IMG/VR virus record: IMGVR_UViG_2698536397_000007
Location: 1 to 9,116 of that record
DNA length: 9,116 nucleotides
Direction: 5' to 3' (one strand)
Origin: a virus
Taxonomy: Duplodnaviria; Heunggongvirae; Uroviricota; Caudoviricetes
Shown here: piece by piece, positions 1 through 6,924 of the stretch
Layout: each line of letters begins with the position of its first letter
Numbering within the stretch: the stretch's first letter is position 1
The notes under the pieces: model-generated
Database searches by the model: none
Told to the model about the DNA's origin: nothing
Seen by the model: the letters and a program-made list of their open reading frames with translations, nothing else
Made by a program: the position numbers and the translations under genes

Positions 1-75
1 CACCCGCAAGGGCCAACGCCAATTGAATGGCTGAAACAGGAATACGAACGCCGGAAGGCAGCTGGTTTTATTTGA
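1..75 (+). CDS. 3' end of an upstream gene (partial; product unknown, possibly the last gene of the replication module)
   Basis: Frame open from the window edge to TGA 73-75 (…HPQGPTPIEWLKQEYERRKAAGFI*); no start codon inside the window. Product is a guess from position only. Confidence 0.35.
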   Translation, partial: HPQGPTPIEWLKQEYERRKAAGFI

Positions 76-108
76 ATCTGAGAAGCGATTTTGTAGGAGG
101 AAATTTTA

Positions 109-870
109 ATGGAAACCGTTTTTGACGCACTGAAAGCAATGGGAAAAGCCAGCTCTGTTGGACTGGCTGAGCGGCTTGATATCAGTCGTGAAGAGGTTCT
201 CAACGAACTGTGGGAACTCAAAAGAAATGGCGTTGTTGATAAAGCGGGTCACATCTGGTTTCTGGCTGGCGAAGGTGAATCCGGGGTAACCGAAGAGCAG
301 CCAGAACAGTCTGAAGTACCGGATGTGCTGACCGGGGAGGTCGAACAAAAAGTTACCGCAGACATGATGATTGAGTTTATCGGTCAGGAGGGGGCTAAAA
401 CGTGTGAGGAACTGGCGGATAAGTTCGGTGTTAGCATTCGCAAGGTTGCTTCCACGTTGGCGGTGGTAACCGCAACGGGACGCCTGGCACGCGTAAATCA
501 GAACGGTAAATTTCGTTACTGCATGCCGGGCGATAATTTACCAGCAGAGCCGAAAGCCGTGCCGGTAACGGAAAATGATGGTAAGGCCTTTCCTCAGCCA
601 GCAGGTGTTGCGTTACCAGTACAGGAATCTGCAACACAGGAAGATATTAAAACAGAAACAGTGGCGGACATTGTGCAGTCGTTGCCATCGTTTACCGAAA
701 CGCAAGCAGATGAGCTGATTTTTCTGTCCCTGTGCAGGGCAAACCTGGCGCTGCGCAGGGCGAAAAGTGATGTTCAGAAGTGGGAGCGAGTCTGTGCCGC
801 GCTGCGGGAACTGAACAAACACAGGGATATTCTCCGGGATATTACCGCCACCAGAGAGCTGCTGCGGTGA
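109..870 (+). CDS. Conserved lambdoid-prophage hypothetical protein with N-terminal winged-helix-like domain (DUF1627-like, family name from memory)
   Basis: ATG 109 preceded by AGGAGG at 95-100 (8-nt spacer); 253 aa; N-terminal segment [26 protein letters not shown] resembles a winged-helix fold, followed by an acidic linker; stop TGA 868-870 overlaps the next candidate start. Confidence 0.75.
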
Positions 871-1184
871 GTGGCTGGAAGAAGTGGCGCTGGGCGGAAA
901 TTATGATACTCCGGCAGTGTGCGGGAACGATGACAGTCGAAAGCATCGGCAGTCTGATTGGCCGTAGTGGGGCTGCCGTCAGGACGAAAGCGCGGGAACT
1001 GGGTATCTGCATGATGTTACGGGGTGATTATCACCAGTCAGCCAAATGTTCACAGCGTGATATTGAGCTGGCGCGGCAACTGCATCAGCGTGGCGTACCC
1101 CGACGGGAAATTGCCGAAAAGTTTGGGATGAAGTTGGGCGCAGTGAATAACTACGTTTATTTCGACAGGAGGGTTCAGGCGTGA
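867..1184 (+). CDS. Hypothetical small protein with two helix-turn-helix-like segments
   Basis: GTG 867 overlaps the upstream stop (GTGA); alternative in-frame ATG at 903. Segments [22 protein letters not shown] and [19 protein letters not shown] look HTH-like. Stop TGA 1182-1184 overlaps the next start. Start codon and function are uncertain. Confidence 0.5.
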
Positions 1185-1486
1185 GGGTGAGAATTTATAT
1201 CGCCGGTCCGATGACGGGATATGAAAATTTCAACCGTGAGGCGTTTCACAGGGCGGAAGAAGCACTGAAACGGGAAGGGCATACCGTTTTAAACCCGGCA
1301 GTACTTCCGGACGGACTGACACAGCCACACTACATGGATATTTGCATGGCGATGATACGCTGCGTGGATGCGATTTACATGCTGAAAGGCTGGCAGCGGT
1401 CGGCAGGCGCTAAGGCAGAACTGGCACTGGCGGAGAAACTGGGACATGCGGTTATTTTCCAGGAGGCAACCAGTGAGAAAAATTAA
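1181..1486 (+). CDS. DUF4406-like protein (nucleoside 2-deoxyribosyltransferase-like fold)
   Basis: GTG 1181 with AGGAGG at 1167-1172 (8-nt spacer); 101 aa; N-terminal IYIAGPMTG…NF…F…G…V.NP pattern typical of DUF4406/NDT-like proteins (recalled, not searched). Confidence 0.7.
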   Translation: MRVRIYIAGPMTGYENFNREAFHRAEEALKREGHTVLNPAVLPDGLTQPHYMDICMAMIRCVDAIYMLKGWQRSAGAKAELALAEKLGHAVIFQEATSEKN

Positions 1487-2036
1487 TTATCAGACGCTAC
1501 GTGAGATAGCAAAACTGGCAACCCAGGGCGAATGGGTCGCATTCATTTCGCCGGGCACTGATACATATGCGGTGCATACGCCGGGGGATGAACGTTGCGG
1601 AGACATTATCAAATGGCCTGGCTTTGATGACCAGAAAAATGCAGAGAACAACGCAGAATTTATTGCAGCTTTCAACCCTGAAGTAGTACAGGCACTGCTG
1701 GATGAACGGGAAGCCCAAAGCAAACGTATTGCAGAGCTGGAAGCTAATCTTGTGGCGCTGGCGGCGGAGAATGCACTTGCTCGTAAAGCAGTTCAGGCAT
1801 TCTGCGATGTTGTTGGCGACAACACCGAGGTTATCGCTGAGGAGGTTGGGCGAGATGGCGTTCTGGTTATCTTGGAGGCCATGAAAGCAACAGGAAATAT
1901 GCCTGCCACCGATGCTTTCCTGGCTGAAGTACGAGCGCAGGGCGTGGAGATGTTTGCGGAGTGTGCATACACACTTGAACATCATGATCACGCAGTAGCC
2001 TTCGCCGCTGAGCTTCGCAAAGGAGGCAACCAGTGA
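1473..2036 (+). CDS. Ead/Ea22-like prophage protein (paralog 1)
   Basis: GTG 1473 with AGGAGG at 1461-1466; the 17-nt start context aggaggcaaccagtgag is identical to that of the next gene (2021-2037). Conserved N-terminal Y-Q-LR…A-GEW and NAEFIAA-NP…LLDERE blocks are shared with the downstream paralog. The six-frame ATG at 1446 is a less likely start (no SD, 40-nt overlap). Confidence 0.7.
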   Translation: MRKINYQTLREIAKLATQGEWVAFISPGTDTYAVHTPGDERCGDIIKWPGFDDQKNAENNAEFIAAFNPEVVQALLDEREAQSKRIAELEANLVALAAENALARKAVQAFCDVVGDNTEVIAEEVGRDGVLVILEAMKATGNMPATDAFLAEVRAQGVEMFAECAYTLEHHDHAVAFAAELRKGGNQ

Positions 2037-2710
2037 GCAAGATTGACTATCAGGCATTGCGTGCTAAGGCAGAAAAAGCAACGTGTGGCGAGTGGTCGCT
2101 CGAATATGGAGAGGGACGATTTGATGGTGATGATGCGCTAATTCATCGTGAAGTTGCTGGATATATTCCCATTTGCAGAATTGAAGGAGCGCATCCTGAA
2201 AGCGGTTTCGATGAAGATTTCCAAATGGAACAGCAGGCCAATGCTGAATTCATCGCCGCAGCCAATCCAGCTACCGTGCTGGCGCTGCTGGATGAACGGG
2301 AAAGAAACCAGCAATACATCAAACGCCGCGACTAGGAGAACGAGGATATTGCGCTAACGGTAGGGAAGCTGCGTGTTGAGCTGGAAGCAGCAGAGAAGCG
2401 GATTGCTGAGCTGCAGGCGCGGGACGTTAAGCCAGTTGCATGGATGAGGAATGCTAACGTCACATCATTCATGTTGAGGTTCACAACCGATGAGAAATAT
2501 GCAGTTGAGCAATGGGGTGATGATGCAGTTGCCCTCTATCCACTCCCTGTAGCTTTCATCCCTGCATGCTTTACAGACGAAAGAAATCTCATGCATATCA
2601 ACGAGCGCGGGCGAGAAACGTCACTTATCTGGAGTAAGCAGAACTCAGACAGCGGCGACATTAAACTTTTTCGTATCGCCGCCGCAGCCGGTAAAGGAGA
2701 GGAATCATGA
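2033..2710 (+). pseudogene. Ead/Ea22-like paralog 2 interrupted by an in-frame TAG at 2333-2335
   Basis: GTG 2033 with the same SD as paralog 1. The frame runs 2033-2332, hits TAG at 2333-2335, then continues in the same frame with no further stop to TGA 2708-2710 (…YIKRRD*ENEDIALTVGKLRVELEAAEKRIAELQARDVKPVAW…). The downstream part has no SD of its own (first ATG at 2444). Confidence 0.55.
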
Positions 2711-3237
2711 GCACTATCACAAGAGAATGGCTGCAGCAGGCTATCAACGATTATGAAAGCGTTCGTGATGAGCTTCCTTTCGGGCTTGATGATTACCAGG
2801 GGAATATCCTGGCTTCCCTGCGTATCGCACTGGCATCTCTGGAAGCAGAGCCGGTGGCGTGGAAGGTAACATTCACGCAAATTGACCGTGAATATAACAC
2901 GTTCACTGGTATGTATTCTGACAAAGCAGAAGTCGAACGGTGGGTGCGGCTGCATAAAGCATGTAATTTTCGGGCAGATATAACACCGCTTTATACCGCC
3001 AAGCCAGTGCCGGTAACTCCGGATGGTTGGATAAGCTGTAGTGAGCGAATGCCGGATACCAAAACAGCCGTTCTTGTTGCCAGGGAGTTTGACAGGAAAG
3101 GTGACTGGCGAATGAAATGGGCGACTTACATCCCGGGGCATCCTGACGCTAATGATGGGTGGGTAGTACCTGGTGCGTCGTGGATACCATCACACTGGAT
3201 GCCGCTACCAGAACCGCCGAAGGAGGTGCGCCAATGA
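2707..3237 (+). CDS. DUF551-domain prophage protein
   Basis: ATG 2707 overlaps the upstream stop (ATGA), SD-like AGGAGA at 2695-2700; 176 aa; C-terminal WISCSERMPD…SHWMPLPEPPK matches the DUF551 signature as recalled. Confidence 0.75.
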   Translation: MSTITREWLQQAINDYESVRDELPFGLDDYQGNILASLRIALASLEAEPVAWKVTFTQIDREYNTFTGMYSDKAEVERWVRLHKACNFRADITPLYTAKPVPVTPDGWISCSERMPDTKTAVLVAREFDRKGDWRMKWATYIPGHPDANDGWVVPGASWIPSHWMPLPEPPKEVRQ

Positions 3238-3317
3238 GCTGGCCTGAGGCCTTCTCAAATGTTGGTATTGCAATGGCGGTGGCGCTGGTGGTGTATTCGA
3301 TTTGCCGCTGGGGATAA
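3234..3317 (+). CDS. Small hydrophobic peptide (27 aa, probable single transmembrane helix)
   Basis: ATG 3234 overlaps the DUF551 stop (ATGA) and has a perfect AGGAGG at 3221-3226 with a 7-nt spacer; encodes MSWPEAFSNVGIAMAVALVVYSICRWG, stop TAA 3315-3317. Too short for the supplied ORF track. Confidence 0.45.
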   Translation: MSWPEAFSNVGIAMAVALVVYSICRWG

Positions 3318-3327
3318 ATCGCCGAAA

Positions 3328-3361
3328 AAAGATCCCGCCACAAACATGAGCCGGGATCTTT
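3328..3361. terminator. Bidirectional intrinsic terminator between convergent transcription units
   Basis: 10-bp stem AAAGATCCCG (3328-3337) / CGGGATCTTT (3352-3361) with a 14-nt loop; A-run 3325-3330 upstream (a T-run on the minus strand) and T-rich sequence downstream. Lies between the plus-strand operon end (3317) and the minus-strand toxin gene end (3440). Confidence 0.5.
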
Positions 3362-3439
3362 GATTTATATAGCCTACGAATCCGCAGTAAGAGAGGGGCA
3401 GACGGTTTATTCTAACACCGGAATGATGTGGGTAAAAGT

Positions 3440-3739
3440 TTATAAGAAATCGGTTTCATAACTTTGCCCACCATGATAGATACCGACAATAAAGACTTTT
3501 CTGCCATCAACGGCAAAAGCAATAATCGTTCTGTGGCGGAAATGAGTTACCCGCATCCCCTGGCGAATATCATCGCGTTTATTGCCCCGATGCGGGAATG
3601 TAGAAAACCCATCAAGATAATCAAGAAGCGCATTGGCATAATTGTCAGCAATGACGTTCCCTGCTTTCTCCGTTATATATCTGTGCAGGTTGATTATTTG
3701 TTGTTCGGCCTCAGGAGTAATGATGACTTCATATGTCAT
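3440..3739 (-). CDS. ParE/RelE-superfamily type II toxin
   Basis: 99 aa (MTYEVIITPEAEQQI…RVTHFRHRTIIAFAVDGRKVFIVGIYHGGQSYETDFL), a size and pattern typical of ParE-like toxins; start 5 nt after the stop of the upstream RHH antitoxin gene on the same strand. Confidence 0.8.
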   Translation of the reverse strand: MTYEVIITPEAEQQIINLHRYITEKAGNVIADNYANALLDYLDGFSTFPHRGNKRDDIRQGMRVTHFRHRTIIAFAVDGRKVFIVGIYHGGQSYETDFL

Positions 3740-3744
3740 GCAGA

Positions 3745-4002
3745 TTACTTCCCGGATCGAATCGCGGCGCGAACCTGTGAAATGGAGCGTCCGTTGTTTG
3801 GGTTTTCGCGGATAGAATCAAGAGAGGGGGCGGCTGAATGCGTTAACCACGCTTCGATTGCTTTATCGCGCTCATTCAGTGCGCGAAGCCCTTCACGAAT
3901 GACCTCGCTTTCTGAAGCATAGGCACCGGAAGCCACACGGGCGCGCACCATGTCAGCCATCTCGTTAGTTAATGTAATGCTGAATTGTTGGGTTGTACGC
4001 AT
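3745..4002 (-). CDS. ParD-like ribbon-helix-helix antitoxin
   Basis: Start taken at ATG 4002-4000 (MRTTQQFSITLTNEMADMVRARVASG…) because GTGAGG lies 6 nt upstream on the minus strand; 85 aa. The longer six-frame ORF starting at 4065 has no SD. Antitoxin-then-toxin order is canonical. Confidence 0.75.
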   Translation of the reverse strand: MRTTQQFSITLTNEMADMVRARVASGAYASESEVIREGLRALNERDKAIEAWLTHSAAPSLDSIRENPNNGRSISQVRAAIRSGK

Positions 4003-4021
4003 GGTAAACCTCACGGAGTAG

Positions 4022-4065
4022 GATAGAACACTATTCGATGATAGCACGCTGCCTGTTGACGACAA
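4022..4065 (-). promoter_or_regulatory. Putative toxin-antitoxin promoter and operator
   Basis: On the minus strand: -35-like TTGTCG (plus 4060-4065), 16-bp spacer, -10 TATCAT (plus 4038-4043). Near the predicted transcription start are two GATAG direct repeats (4022-4026, 4039-4043) and an ATAG-n4-CTAT inverted repeat (4024-4035). A plus-strand TTGACG (4054-4059) suggests a divergent promoter. Hexamer matching by eye only. Confidence 0.3.
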
Positions 4066-4137
4066 CAGAAATCAGAGACAATATTGCCGCACGCCAGCCT
4101 GAACAACTGGCACCTGCTGCGCCAGCAGAGACAACCG

Positions 4138-4416
4138 ATGGCGCAAGATACCAAATTACACAATTCGGATAACTCCACCGCCCCTGCCAGCAGGCACGGG
4201 CGGCGTTCTCATGCATTCAAATCTGACTGGTTCCAGCATGACCCATGCACTGAAGAACAGGCCGAATGGCTGATCCAGTGCTACCGCAGACGTGGTTACG
4301 AGTTTCAGAAAGATCTCAGCTTCGATCGTCGTCACTGGATAATCTCCGTCAGGCTCCCTTATTCCGAACGCCCACCGCGTCCGTCCCGCACATTCCAGCA
4401 GCGCATCTGGAGGTAA
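4138..4416 (+). CDS. Hypothetical protein, translationally coupled to the DUF968 gene
   Basis: Open frame ending at TAA 4414-4416, 1 nt before the DUF968 GTG start, and containing that gene's GGAGG. Start uncertain: ATG 4138 or the six-frame TTG at 4084, neither with a strong SD. Confidence 0.45.
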   Translation: MAQDTKLHNSDNSTAPASRHGRRSHAFKSDWFQHDPCTEEQAEWLIQCYRRRGYEFQKDLSFDRRHWIISVRLPYSERPPRPSRTFQQRIWR

Positions 4417-4417
4417 C

Positions 4418-5476
4418 GTGCGGGTATTACTTCGACCTGTTCTGGTACCGGAACTCGGGATGGTGCTCCTTAAGCCGGGCCGTGAATCAATGTCAGCATT
4501 CCATAACGGCAGAATATTGGTGGAACCGGAACCGAAAAACATGCGCGGTCTGCCGTCCGGAGTCGTTCCTGCCGTTCGCCAGCCGCTGGCAGAGGATAAA
4601 ACATTACTGCCATTTTTCAGCGATGAGCGGGTTATTCGTGCAGCAGGTGGTGCAGGTGCACTGTCTGACTGGTTATTACGTCACGTGAAATCCTGCCAGT
4701 GGCCACACGGTGATTATCATCACAGCGAAACCGTCATTCACCGTTACGGTACCGGCGCGATGGTGTTGTGCTGGCACTGTGACAACCAGCTGCGCGACCA
4801 GACATCAGAATCACTCGATCAACTTGCTCAGCAGAATCTGGTTGCCTGGATGATTGACGTCATCCGTCACGCAATAAGCAGTACGCAGGAGAGGGAGTTA
4901 TCGCTGGCCGAATTATCCTGGTGGGCGGTCTGCAATCAGGTGGTGGATGCACTACCTGAGGCAGTAGTGCGTCGTTCGCTGGGATTACCAGCGGAAAAAA
5001 TCCGCTCCGTATACCGTGAGAGCGACATCGTACCGGGAGAGCAGGCCGCCACCAGCATACTGAAGCAGCGCACAAAAAATATTGCGCTGCCACTTCACGT
5101 CCACCAGCAACAAAATCCCCCCCAGGAAAAGACGTTAGTAAGCATCGCCGTTGATCCGGAGTCTCCGGCTCAGTACCTCCAGCGCCAGAAACCACAACGG
5201 GAAGAGATGCCTGTATACACGCGCTGGGTAAAAACGCAGAAATGCATGACGTGTGGCAATCAGGCAGATGATCCGCATCACATCATTGGTCATGGACTGG
5301 GAGGTATGGGAACAAAGGCTGACGATTTGTTTGTTATTCCGTTATGCCGTAAATGCCATAACGAACTACACGCCGGGGTAAAAGATTTTGAAGAGAAACA
5401 CGGCAGTCAGCTGTTGTTGCTGATTCGTTTTTTAATGCACGCGAGAAATTCGGGTGTTCTGAAGTGGAAAGCATAA
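4418..5476 (+). CDS. DUF968 (YdfU-like) protein with C-terminal HNH-type nuclease motif
   Basis: GTG 4418 with GGAGG at 4409-4413; 352 aa; C-terminus CMTCGNQADDPHHIIGHGLGG…DDLFVIPLCRKCHNELH is a CxxC…HH…CxxCH…H HNH/zinc-finger signature; stop TAA 5474-5476 abuts the rusA start. Same placement next to Q as ydfU in the E. coli K-12 Qin prophage (recalled). Confidence 0.85.
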   Translation: MRVLLRPVLVPELGMVLLKPGRESMSAFHNGRILVEPEPKNMRGLPSGVVPAVRQPLAEDKTLLPFFSDERVIRAAGGAGALSDWLLRHVKSCQWPHGDYHHSETVIHRYGTGAMVLCWHCDNQLRDQTSESLDQLAQQNLVAWMIDVIRHAISSTQERELSLAELSWWAVCNQVVDALPEAVVRRSLGLPAEKIRSVYRESDIVPGEQAATSILKQRTKNIALPLHVHQQQNPPQEKTLVSIAVDPESPAQYLQRQKPQREEMPVYTRWVKTQKCMTCGNQADDPHHIIGHGLGGMGTKADDLFVIPLCRKCHNELHAGVKDFEEKHGSQLLLLIRFLMHARNSGVLKWKA

Positions 5477-5842
5477 ATGACCGAGCGCATAGAATTTGTT
5501 TTGCCTTACCCGCCGACGGTGAACACTTACTGGCGACGCCGTGGCAGCACATATTTTATATCGGAGGAGGGAAAGCGCTATCGCCGGGCAGTGGCGCTTA
5601 TTGTTCGCCAGCAGCGGCTGAAATTAAGCCTGTCCGGACGGCTGGCAATAAAAATTATTGCAGAGCCACCGGATAAGCGTCGTCGTGACCTGGACAACAT
5701 TCTGAAAGCACCGCTGGATGCGCTGACGCATGCGGGAGTGCTCATTGATGACGAGCAGTTTGATGAAATCAATATTGTACGTGGTCAGCTTGTTCTTGGT
5801 GGTCGGCTGGGTGTGAAGATTTACAAAATTGAGAGTGAGTGA
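5477..5842 (+). CDS. rusA: RusA-family Holliday junction resolvase
   Basis: ATG 5477 immediately after the upstream TAA; 121 aa; LPYPPTVNTYW…DKRRRDLDNILKAPLDALTHAGVLIDDEQ matches the RusA signature with its conserved acidic residues. Confidence 0.9.
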   Translation: MTERIEFVLPYPPTVNTYWRRRGSTYFISEEGKRYRRAVALIVRQQRLKLSLSGRLAIKIIAEPPDKRRRDLDNILKAPLDALTHAGVLIDDEQFDEINIVRGQLVLGGRLGVKIYKIESE

Positions 5843-6411
5843 GCGTAAATATGATATATCCGGAAATTACAGGCAAAAGCGGCGAACATTTACGCCTGAA
5901 CACGCTGGAAGCAGTCTGGATCCAGGGGAAATTACGGATGTGGGGGCGGTGGTCGTATATCGGTGGGGGTAAATCCGGAAATATGTTTAACCGGTTACTG
6001 GTTTCGAAAAAGCTGACGAAAACAGCAGTTAATGAAGTTTTACGCAGAATGAAGAAATCTGGGCTGGATAAACCGGAACTTGAGGCATTTTTTCGGGATA
6101 TGACCAGAGGGAAGCAGAAGAGCTGGTTGTCACATTGTACAGACACAGAGGCGTTGATTATTGATCGCGTTATCAGTGAGGTGCTTGGGGAATATCCCGG
6201 GCTAATCAATATTCTCCGGCAAAGGTACGAAGGACGAGGAATGAGCAAACTGAAAATGGCCGAAAGGTTAAATGCAGATCATCCTGAGTGGACGTTGGTT
6301 ACGTGCAGACGCCGAATTGATCAGTGGTTGGGGATATCTGAATTTATGTTACATGCCCCCATGCGTATGGCTTTTGTTACAGAGAAAAAAATGTTGCAAA
6401 CTGATCAATAA
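5839..6411 (+). CDS. Putative late-gene antiterminator Q (phage 21/82 type, PF06530-like as recalled)
   Basis: GTG 5839 overlaps the rusA stop (GTGA); alternative ATG at 5851. 190 aa with an LE-VW…WGRW…G block reminiscent of Q21-type antiterminators. Position directly after DUF968/rusA and before a promoter-terminator unit fits Q. Identification is by synteny and weak motif recall. Confidence 0.55.
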   Translation: MSVNMIYPEITGKSGEHLRLNTLEAVWIQGKLRMWGRWSYIGGGKSGNMFNRLLVSKKLTKTAVNEVLRRMKKSGLDKPELEAFFRDMTRGKQKSWLSHCTDTEALIIDRVISEVLGEYPGLINILRQRYEGRGMSKLKMAERLNADHPEWTLVTCRRRIDQWLGISEFMLHAPMRMAFVTEKKMLQTDQ

Positions 6412-6422
6412 ACTGCTTCAAT
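6394..6422 (+). promoter_or_regulatory. Candidate late promoter (PR'-like)
   Basis: TTGCAA (6394-6399), 17-bp spacer, TTCAAT (6417-6422), straddling the Q stop codon. Followed by CGCAAG(G) direct repeats at 6435-6441, 6459-6464 and 6471-6479, and a terminator about 75 nt downstream. Weak hexamers. Confidence 0.25.
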
Positions 6423-6482
6423 CCGTATAAGCTTCGCAAGGCTGTATCGCGAGGCGAAACGCAAGTTTTTTCGCACAAGGAA

Positions 6483-6504
6483 GCCACCGGAAGGTGGTTT
6501 TTTT
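6483..6504 (+). terminator. Intrinsic terminator (tR'-like) downstream of Q
   Basis: Stem CCACC (6484-6488) / GGTGG (6493-6497), loop GGAA, followed by seven T (6498-6504). Confidence 0.5.
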
Positions 6505-6627
6505 GTGTCCGTAATATACAGCAGCGCAATAAATTCGCTGGTGGTTATTAATACCGTTCTTTCAGCTTGCTGGCTTTTTCGACAAGAGTTATTGGTGTGT
6601 CACGTTAACCGGAAAAGGGGAAAAGAC

Positions 6628-6825
6628 ATGCTGAAACAGCAGGATATGACAGAAACCGCCAGGGCAGTGTTTAATGAATTAAGCGTCACCGAACCGGCGA
6701 CAGTCGGGGAGATTGCGCAGAATACTTACCTTTCACGCGAACGCTGTCAGTTAATACTGACCCAGCTTGTTATGGCGGGTCTGGCAGACTATCAGTTCGG
6801 TTGTTACAGACGCCTTCAGTCCTGA
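6628..6825 (+). CDS. Small hypothetical protein (65 aa), possible winged-helix/HTH DNA-binding protein
   Basis: ATG 6628 with AAGGGG at 6615-6620 (7-nt spacer); MLKQQDMTETARAVFNELSVTEPATVGEIAQNTYLSRERCQLILTQLVMAGL…; stop TGA 6823-6825 lies inside a terminator stem. The six-frame GTG start at 6505 sits in the upstream terminator T-tract and was not used. Confidence 0.55.
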   Translation: MLKQQDMTETARAVFNELSVTEPATVGEIAQNTYLSRERCQLILTQLVMAGLADYQFGCYRRLQS

Positions 6826-6838
6826 AGGCTTTTTTATT
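6812..6838 (+). terminator. Intrinsic terminator
   Basis: Perfect 8-bp stem GCCTTCAG (6812-6819) / CTGAAGGC (6822-6829), 2-nt loop, followed by TTTTTTATTT. Confidence 0.6.
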
Positions 6839-6924
6839 TGTGGTAAATGGGCGGCTGGTGGGTGTTAGGGGCACTCACCAGCCATCTGCTCATGCGTCCG
6901 GATCACAAGCAAACCTCAGGCCCA

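Follow-up and report, generated by a model that had tools for sequence, protein, structure and literature searches.

The analysed stretch of DNA comprises 9,116 nucleotides (nt) of the virus record IMGVR_UViG_2698536397_000007 (positions 1 to 9,116; in the following, the window) and, as judged by its gene order in comparison with NZ_CP027586, is the nin-type delayed-early region of an Escherichia coli lambdoid prophage. On its plus strand it carries a small open reading frame (ORF) of 27 codons, the start codon of which overlaps the stop codon of a DUF551-domain gene. Start, frame, length and stop of this small ORF are kept over hundreds of copies, with saturated synonymous divergence and a ratio of non-synonymous to synonymous polymorphism (pN/pS) of 0.29, which supports the proposal of a preliminary description that this is a genuine gene for a small hydrophobic protein. 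Judged from this signature, the small ORF is a real protein-coding gene, conserved as a unit under purifying selection. With moderate confidence we regard its product as a translationally coupled, single-pass (probably N-out/C-in) inner-membrane microprotein, which would be made together with the early phage genes and act within the membrane.

The small ORF and its junction with the DUF551 gene

The preliminary description had placed an AGGAGG 7 nt before an ATG that overlaps the DUF551 stop and had read a 27-aa hydrophobic peptide from there. All of this was found as described, and the elements concerned are the following:

2707..3237, plus strand: DUF551-domain gene, 176 aa (Pfam PF04448, E 4.5e-20; RefSeq annotation of a prophage with 99.9% identity)
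3221..3226, plus strand: Shine-Dalgarno (SD) sequence AGGAGG, within the last DUF551 codons, with the 7-nt spacer TGCGCCA before the ATG
3234..3237, plus strand: ATGA junction, in which the ATG of the small ORF (3234-3236) overlaps the TGA of the DUF551 gene (3235-3237); termination-reinitiation geometry
3234..3317, plus strand: 27-codon gene for MSWPEAFSNVGIAMAVALVVYSICRWG, with an M-x-WPEAF N-terminus, one hydrophobic helix and a basic/aromatic C-terminus, CRWG
95, 386, 1167, 1461, 1840, 2021, 3221, 5565 and 8893, plus strand: AGGAGG sites, several of them within the 3'-terminal part of the gene before

The junction around SD sequence and ATG reads ...CCGAAGGAGGTGCGCCAATGAGCTGG... in the window. 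Residues 9-23 of the peptide (NVGIAMAVALVVYSI) are hydrophobic, with small residues at positions 11, 15 and 17. By its sequence, the 27-aa peptide would fall among small single-pass membrane proteins, taken as proteins of at most 50 aa with one hydrophobic stretch that could span a bilayer, and the arrangement at 3234-3237 is that of a coupled gene, i.e. a start that overlaps the upstream stop and an internal SD sequence at a distance of 5-9 nt.

The combination AGGAGG-N7-ATG is present once in the window, against 0.09 expected. The hexamer AGGAGG itself was found nine times, always on the plus strand, where 3.5 would be expected over both strands, and four sites other than that of the small ORF lie, as read from the coordinates, 6-8 nt ahead of annotated or likely starts (109, 1181, 1473 and 2033). 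The SD sequence of the small ORF is therefore of the same kind as those of its annotated neighbours, and the operon in the window appears to be tightly coupled throughout. An open frame of 27 codons arises by chance with a probability of (61/64)^27, or ~0.27, and is unremarkable alone; it is its conservation that raises the small ORF above chance.

Conservation of the small ORF as a unit

With a 161-nt query around the small ORF, 3289 matches were obtained, spread over 1670 of the 5426 complete E. coli genomes (~31%); many of them span query positions 20 to 103/104, i.e. exactly from the ATG to the stop codon. Among loci selected by their motif, of which first 95 and then 215 were analysed, 94/95 and 189/215 copies have exactly 27 codons; the stop codon varies (TAA, TGA) but its position is fixed. 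The sequence behind the stop codon falls into at least 54 unrelated classes, including hok/sok, a parDE terminator, assorted hairpins and the next gene, and upstream of the SD sequence at least 20 unrelated gene ends were found, with the DUF551 type being the commonest (129/217 instances). Variants in length are due to in-frame expansions of a 6-nt repeat, GCAATG, which encodes Ala-Met. The homologs P0052, P0055, P0057 and P0059 have two or four extra Ala-Met dipeptides (GIAMAMAMAVAL...), which lengthen the helix by 4-8 residues, and one such variant is present on nine contigs, including a chromosome of 4.86 Mb.

The coding signature was calculated from 49 unique nucleotide versions of the E. 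coli-type small ORF. Variable sites are distributed 12/13/22 over the three codon positions, and between subfamilies the synonymous divergence ranges from 0.3 to saturated, with a non-synonymous divergence of 0.06-0.33. The pooled pN/pS is 0.29 in the frame of the small ORF, versus 1.07 and 1.99 in the other two sense frames, which are interrupted by stop codons in 46/49 and 49/49 sequences.

The opposite strand has to be considered as well. The wobble-aligned antisense frame, in the window part of a 64-aa ORF (3149..3343, minus strand) that spans the small gene, is open in 49/49 sequences with a pN/pS of 0.34, which speaks against the reading on the plus strand. The antisense ORF has, however, no conserved start codon, length, ends or N-terminus across contexts, and its low pN/pS is the known mirror artefact that is expected from shared wobble positions. 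Because the antisense value is also low, the assignment of the coding strand rests on the conservation of start and stop and on the operon context and not on pN/pS alone. The locus might also be read as a structured RNA, for which Rfam gave no match, or as the target of a -1 frameshift by which the DUF551 protein would gain a membrane anchor. Such a frameshift would be favoured by the 25 open codons that, in the window, precede the ATG in the frame of the small ORF, as well as by database entries in which fragments of this frame bear the name DUF551 (see below), but a slippery heptamer of the type X XXY YYZ was not found in 3150-3232. Further, in-frame stop codons precede the ATG within 20 codons in 44/81 contexts and by only one to five codons in eight; therefore, the ATG is the start and a frameshift fusion is unlikely. 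That the antisense ORF, an RNA or a frameshift product is what is conserved here is, taken together, extremely improbable.

Spread and annotation of the E. coli-type copies

Full-length copies with 55-89% identity were detected by tblastn in 96 phage records; they are present in 933W, VT2-Sakai, VT1-Sakai, Stx2 II, Min27, BP-4795, YYZ-2008 and the lytic Vequintavirinae phage Av-05. The same search found copies in 226 plasmid records, mostly non-mobilizable plasmids of ~90-100 kb from E. coli or Salmonella, which we infer to be phage-plasmids. There was no copy after ea22 in lambda and none in the K-12 prophages CPS-53, Rac and Qin (DLP12 and e14 were outside this check). Small-protein studies in model systems have missed the small ORF probably because lambda and these three K-12 prophages do not have it.

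In each RefSeq record, annotated by the Prokaryotic Genome Annotation Pipeline (PGAP), and each phage record inspected, the small ORF is unannotated and the upstream coding sequence ends 4 nt (or 1 nt) inside it. The earlier statement that gene callers miss it thus holds for these records, but not everywhere: a few GenBank genomes list the identical 27-aa peptide as a "hypothetical protein" (e.g. BAI35516.1). A protein search with the 52-aa frame extended upstream returned only "hypothetical protein" entries of E. coli, Shigella, E. albertii and Salmonella. Genome contigs were also scanned with the narrow pattern M[TSN]WPEAFx[TNA], which does not delimit the host range; it matched Escherichia, Shigella and two tiny contigs, one of Xanthomonas pisi (431 bp) and one of Acinetobacter idrijaensis (369 bp). 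Both carry E. coli-type copies with hok/sok-like sequence downstream and a DUF551 tail, and are most likely assembly contamination.

Two naming problems were noticed in the databases. Fragments of the small-ORF frame at contig ends are labelled "DUF551 domain-containing protein, partial" by PGAP (e.g. EKC0363722.1 and EAB7042160.1), and in a protein cluster at 90% the 27-aa peptide stands together with DUF551 proteins of 121 aa to which it is unrelated. The peptide itself is not a DUF551 (PF04448) protein, as it has no match to the profile and lies in a different reading frame from the DUF551 gene, and the PGAP label is a naming artefact. A fusion of DUF551 and peptide, as hinted at by the clustering, was rejected as well: the 121-aa proteins contain no peptide sequence.

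Relation to the upstream gene

The peptide might be a dedicated partner of the upstream gene product, tethering a DUF551/Ea22-type protein to the membrane or regulating it there, with coupled translation setting the stoichiometry. Indeed, a DUF551-type gene is upstream in 129/217 instances with 24 distinct junction sequences, the SD sequence is encoded by the C-terminal tail of DUF551, and DUF551 has been described as a portable C-terminal domain (PMC10834534). However, at least 20 unrelated C-termini precede the small ORF, among them those of hypothetical proteins, a methyltransferase and DUF669 and, identified by eye, DnaQ-like and DHH-type proteins; YfdS of K-12, a DUF551 protein, and Ea22 of lambda are encoded without the small ORF; a DUF551 query matched 2806 genomes versus 1670 for the small-ORF query; and an in-frame fusion of DUF551 and peptide was not found among the homologs. 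We consider a dedicated DUF551 partner quite unlikely. The preliminary description had the small gene coupled to the DUF551 gene: the overlap geometry is real and DUF551 is the commonest partner, but the coupling is neither specific nor obligatory. It had also named conservation of ORF and SD sequence in homologs as a check, and a reading frame that is lost in homologs as a refutation. The frame was found to be retained instead, and many upstream genes that are unrelated to one another are followed by both the SD sequence and the stop/start overlap.

A wider group of M-x-WPEAF peptides

The E. coli-type copies probably belong to a larger family of phage microproteins, with diverged forms in phages of other bacteria. 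The pattern M-N-W-P-E-A-F gave at least 120 matches in viral contigs, versus one for the composition-matched decoy M-N-E-W-A-P-F. Apart from E. coli-type copies, ~15 diverged peptides with a length of 22-35 aa (56 aa in one case) are among these matches; in each of them a hydrophobic helix comes immediately after the motif and leads into a short tail that is mostly basic (e.g. MNWPEAFAIVGVAFAVAYLFSHMV and MNWPEAFAMVGVAFAVAWWLRS). A pattern that excluded A at position 4 returned about a dozen members that start with MGWPEAF, MSWPEAF or MEWPEAF. A diverged member used as tblastn query gave no match in the phage collection, for which its shortness or the filter for low complexity is probably responsible. 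With a mean Kyte-Doolittle value of at least 1.5 over residues 8-22 as selection threshold, the family amounts to 217 instances in 90 distinct contexts, with 41 distinct peptides of 19-56 aa on contigs of 39% to 69% GC.

An overlap of the type ATGA or TGATG/TAATG with an upstream open frame was found in 82 of the 90 distinct contexts and an SD-like tetramer at -17 to -5 in 86; in diverged members the small ORF often overlaps the start of the downstream gene, too. In 32 of the 41 peptides the last six residues carry a net positive charge, and E5 is invariant. Positions 11, 15 and 17 are mostly G, A, S or C, with G at position 11 in 28/41, A at position 15 in 28/41 and A at position 17 in 30/41 peptides. 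Diverged members have, as read from the sequences, genes of early DNA metabolism next to them; by eye, a DHH-type protein or an exonuclease of the DnaQ-like or YqaJ type is encoded upstream and a VRR-NUC-like nuclease, DnaN or RusA downstream. A DUF669-type upstream protein was confirmed through the annotation of related Rhizobium phages.

The diverged members also bear on the idea that the peptide has no function of its own, the 84-nt block being a recombination "linker" between lambdoid modules or a stretch whose translation alone matters, for example by shielding the 3' end of the operon from Rho or RNases. The block does lie at mosaic junctions, flanked by many different modules, and is often the last ORF ahead of a hairpin. 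In diverged members, however, the ORF lies within operons and extends into the next gene, and the amino acid sequence is conserved with different codons across contigs of 39-69% GC. Moreover, pN/pS is 0.29 at saturated synonymous divergence, and length and C-terminal charge are conserved. A functionless block is considered very unlikely.

A more far-reaching view is that all M-x-WPEAF-helix peptides form one ancient phage family, present in phages of Gammaproteobacteria, Alphaproteobacteria and hosts of higher GC content and locked by the start/stop overlap into early replication/recombination operons. Its members would act on a conserved inner-membrane machine (e.g. the insertase/translocon, FtsH or the divisome) or anchor an early transcription-translation-replication complex to the membrane, and would be a general host-takeover factor. 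We regard this view as speculative and rather doubtful.

Some observations were made at loci of, or close to, these peptides. One member has an upstream protein that shares 98% identity with one from Sinorhizobium phage NV1.1.1 (OP484858); this phage itself has in the same slot after DUF669, at ~2052-2123, a different unannotated hydrophobic ORF of 23 aa (MGWLLAIIALAAGLYFLDRWMVG) with a TGATG overlap. In Rhizobium phage RHph_TM3_3_14B the same slot, again with a TGATG overlap, is taken by an annotated 54-aa protein with two helices that begins with MGWPQ (2067..2231; phrog_5479, QIG68695.1). This protein resembles the MGWPEAF members in its slot between the DUF669 gene and dnaN, its overlap and its MGWP start, but it has twice the length, contains two hydrophobic segments instead of one and does not have the EAF, and is at most a candidate homolog. 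In IMGVR_UViG_3300028592_000010 (69% GC), a second small hydrophobic ORF with the motif TWPEAV (…DTWPEAVEGVALVCSIAWALSAFFIAAAIAKKRGEDR) lies ~200-330 nt past the ATG of the 56-aa MNWPEAF member and is followed by a third; the small hydrophobic ORFs of this contig may be tandem paralogs. The 138-kb viral contig IMGVR_UViG_3300036715_002161 has an odd neighbour: the ORF upstream of its MNWPEAF member encodes a repeat protein with a PEP-CTERM-like end (…VPEPETYALILCGLGMIALKRRNRLV).

Proposed product and mode of action

The small ORF would be expressed without a promoter of its own, as a gene of the delayed-early (nin/ea) accessory region. Ribosomes that end the upstream gene at its TGA could reinitiate at the overlapping ATG, or new ribosomes could load there from the internal SD sequence, and the peptide would accompany every round of transcription and translation of the early operon. 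The 27 residues are predicted to insert into the inner membrane as a single pass, probably by YidC-type insertion. Because of the positive-inside rule, an N-out/C-in topology is expected, in which the short acidic, aromatic N-terminus M-x-W-P-E-A-F is most likely at the periplasm or the interface of the outer leaflet and the basic C-terminus C-R-W-G most likely in the cytoplasm. Since only ~7 and ~4 residues would protrude on the two sides, the peptide must, on this model, act within the bilayer. The face of small residues formed by G11, A15 and A17 suggests helix-helix packing, and the partner may be a membrane protein of the host or the phage or the peptide itself. The putative effect is that the host is modified at an early stage of lytic growth; the machineries of the host for transport, division, proteolysis or insertion are possible targets, and superinfection exclusion is a further option.

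Besides the open antisense frame described above, the following weighs against the assignment as an inner-membrane microprotein of a phage family. The topology and the helix packing are taken from rules of thumb. The wider family was found by searching its own motif, so the conservation of the motif is by construction; of the shared features, only the helix, the short length, the charge pattern and the coupling argue independently for a relationship. Finally, the ribosome-profiling survey of enterohaemorrhagic E. coli Sakai took intergenic ORFs of at least 30 aa from uninduced cells, which put a 27-codon ORF out of its reach.

A different activity within the same membrane would be that of a damaging toxin of the type I or small-holin kind, i.e. 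an inner-membrane oligomer that dissipates the proton-motive force and thereby aids host shut-off, lysis timing or abortive exclusion of other phages. TisB, DinQ and Ibs are hydrophobic toxins of 19-35 aa, and the peptide resembles them in size and composition. Its small-residue face at positions 11, 15 and 17 could support self-association, and in many phages the small ORF lies directly beside hok/sok or parDE cassettes; in 933W, hokW is ~290 nt downstream of the small-ORF copy. These toxin-antitoxin cassettes are, however, interchangeable neighbours and not fixed partners. Because homology stops at the edges of the small ORF, a conserved antisense RNA or a private promoter is impossible, and the Rfam search gave no match. 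The strong SD sequence and the tight coupling are the opposite of the translational repression of type I toxins. Further, the small ORF lies in nin, exo-xis or replication regions upstream of Q and not in a lysis cassette with endolysin and spanin genes, and Pfam HOK_GEF (PF01848) matched only one of 21 family members, below the cut-off (E 0.079). A membrane-damaging toxin is therefore considered unlikely.

Comparison with known small membrane proteins

Neither the peptide nor any of 21 family members had a match above threshold in Pfam, PHROGs, NCBIfam or PADLOC, and Rfam and PDB sequence searches with the small ORF or the peptide were empty. The best weak match in Pfam, DUF7220, was rejected (14.4 bits versus a cut-off of 28, E 0.05; one of 21 members matched). 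In the full texts searched, "WPEAF" occurs only in unrelated acronyms, and neither the small-gene paper on Sakai nor the preprint on the microproteome of Enterobacteriaceae nor the global catalogue of small ORFs lists the peptide in its supplements. The peptide family appears to be undescribed, although its kind, a small hydrophobic, translationally coupled microprotein of phages or bacteria, is well known.

Small single-pass regulators of the inner membrane include KdpF (29 aa), MgtS (31 aa), AcrZ (49 aa), PmrR (29 aa) and, in Caulobacter, the division inhibitor SidA (29 aa). Like these, the peptide has fewer than 50 aa, one hydrophobic helix and scarcely any soluble part, and is encoded by a gene of the sort that annotation routinely misses; because almost no soluble part is present, any activity of theirs must come from contacts within the membrane. 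Sequence similarity was not found (E 2.1 for KdpF in NCBIfam; the PDB search was empty), and unlike these regulators the peptide is phage-encoded, has the conserved M-x-WPEAF N-terminus and is tied by a start/stop overlap into phage early operons. With Hok/Gef, TisB and DinQ it shares the short hydrophobic sequence and the location in the same prophage regions, but it is encoded without antisense RNA or private promoter and leader, is not a member of HOK_GEF and has a strong SD sequence and coupling instead of repression.

The mode of expression is that of the termination-reinitiation gene pairs with ATGA or TGATG junctions, which likewise have a stop/start overlap of 4 nt or 1 nt and an SD sequence inside the upstream gene; this likeness concerns expression only and not the function of the product. 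For membrane insertion without a signal peptide, the major coat protein of phage Pf3 may serve as a model. This protein of 44 aa is inserted by YidC with its N-terminus out and its C-terminus in and, like the peptide, has a short acidic N-tail, one helix and a basic C-tail with R-W. Unlike the peptide, it is a structural protein of a filamentous-phage virion, has a different genomic context and shows no detectable sequence relation.

Genomic setting in the window

Over positions 1-5824, the window shares 99.6% identity with a prophage carried by E. coli 2012EL-2448 (NZ_CP027586). The genes of this prophage run in the order replication protein P, DUF1627, DNA-binding protein, DUF4406, two ead/Ea22-like genes and DUF551, followed by the unannotated small ORF, the convergent ParE/ParD genes, a hypothetical gene, DUF968, RusA, antiterminator and methyltransferase. 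Features of the window beyond the small ORF are:

2444..2710, plus strand: 88-aa ORF (MRNANVTSFMLRF...), ATGA overlap with the DUF551 start at 2707
3329..3366, strand not assigned: G+C-rich hairpin GATCCCG...CGGGATC, 12 nt past the stop codon of the small ORF (-19.7 kcal/mol, z -2.7)
5825..6549: segment unrelated to NZ_CP027586
6976..7437 and 7317..8015, plus strand: two overlapping frames of an N6/N4 DNA methylase (PF01555)

The 88-aa ORF had no match in Pfam or PADLOC and is unannotated in the 99.9% identical RefSeq prophage, where a truncated ead/Ea22-like pseudogene ends just upstream. The hairpin is followed by TGATTT on the plus strand and by TTTTTT on the minus strand. Its sequence follows the small ORF only where the neighbour is ParE/ParD, and other copies have unrelated sequence downstream; the hairpin is part of the downstream module and not of the small ORF. 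It probably terminates the convergent parDE cassette and may also act as a weak terminator on the plus strand.

Similarity to NZ_CP027586 resumes at 6550, the antiterminator/DUF1133 segment having been replaced, which is a lambdoid mosaic junction of the typical kind. The homolog of the methylase in NZ_CP027586 is a single gene of 1059 nt that aligns with 95% identity and four gaps; the split in the methylase of the window probably marks a frameshifted pseudogene or stems from an error in sequencing.

Significance

Standard annotation omits a gene that is present in ~31% of the complete E. coli genomes and also in Shiga-toxin phages of medical importance, namely 933W, VT1-Sakai and VT2-Sakai. 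In the literature retrieved on the exo-xis region, effects on lysogeny and induction are assigned to annotated genes only, and an unseen membrane peptide that is co-expressed from the exo-xis and nin regions could confound studies of exo-xis. If the wider M-x-WPEAF family is confirmed, it would provide sharply defined and easily synthesised peptides of 22-30 residues with which to study how phages manipulate the inner membrane of their hosts. If these peptides do form one ancient family that acts in the way outlined above, they would be a general host-takeover factor that has so far gone unnoticed.

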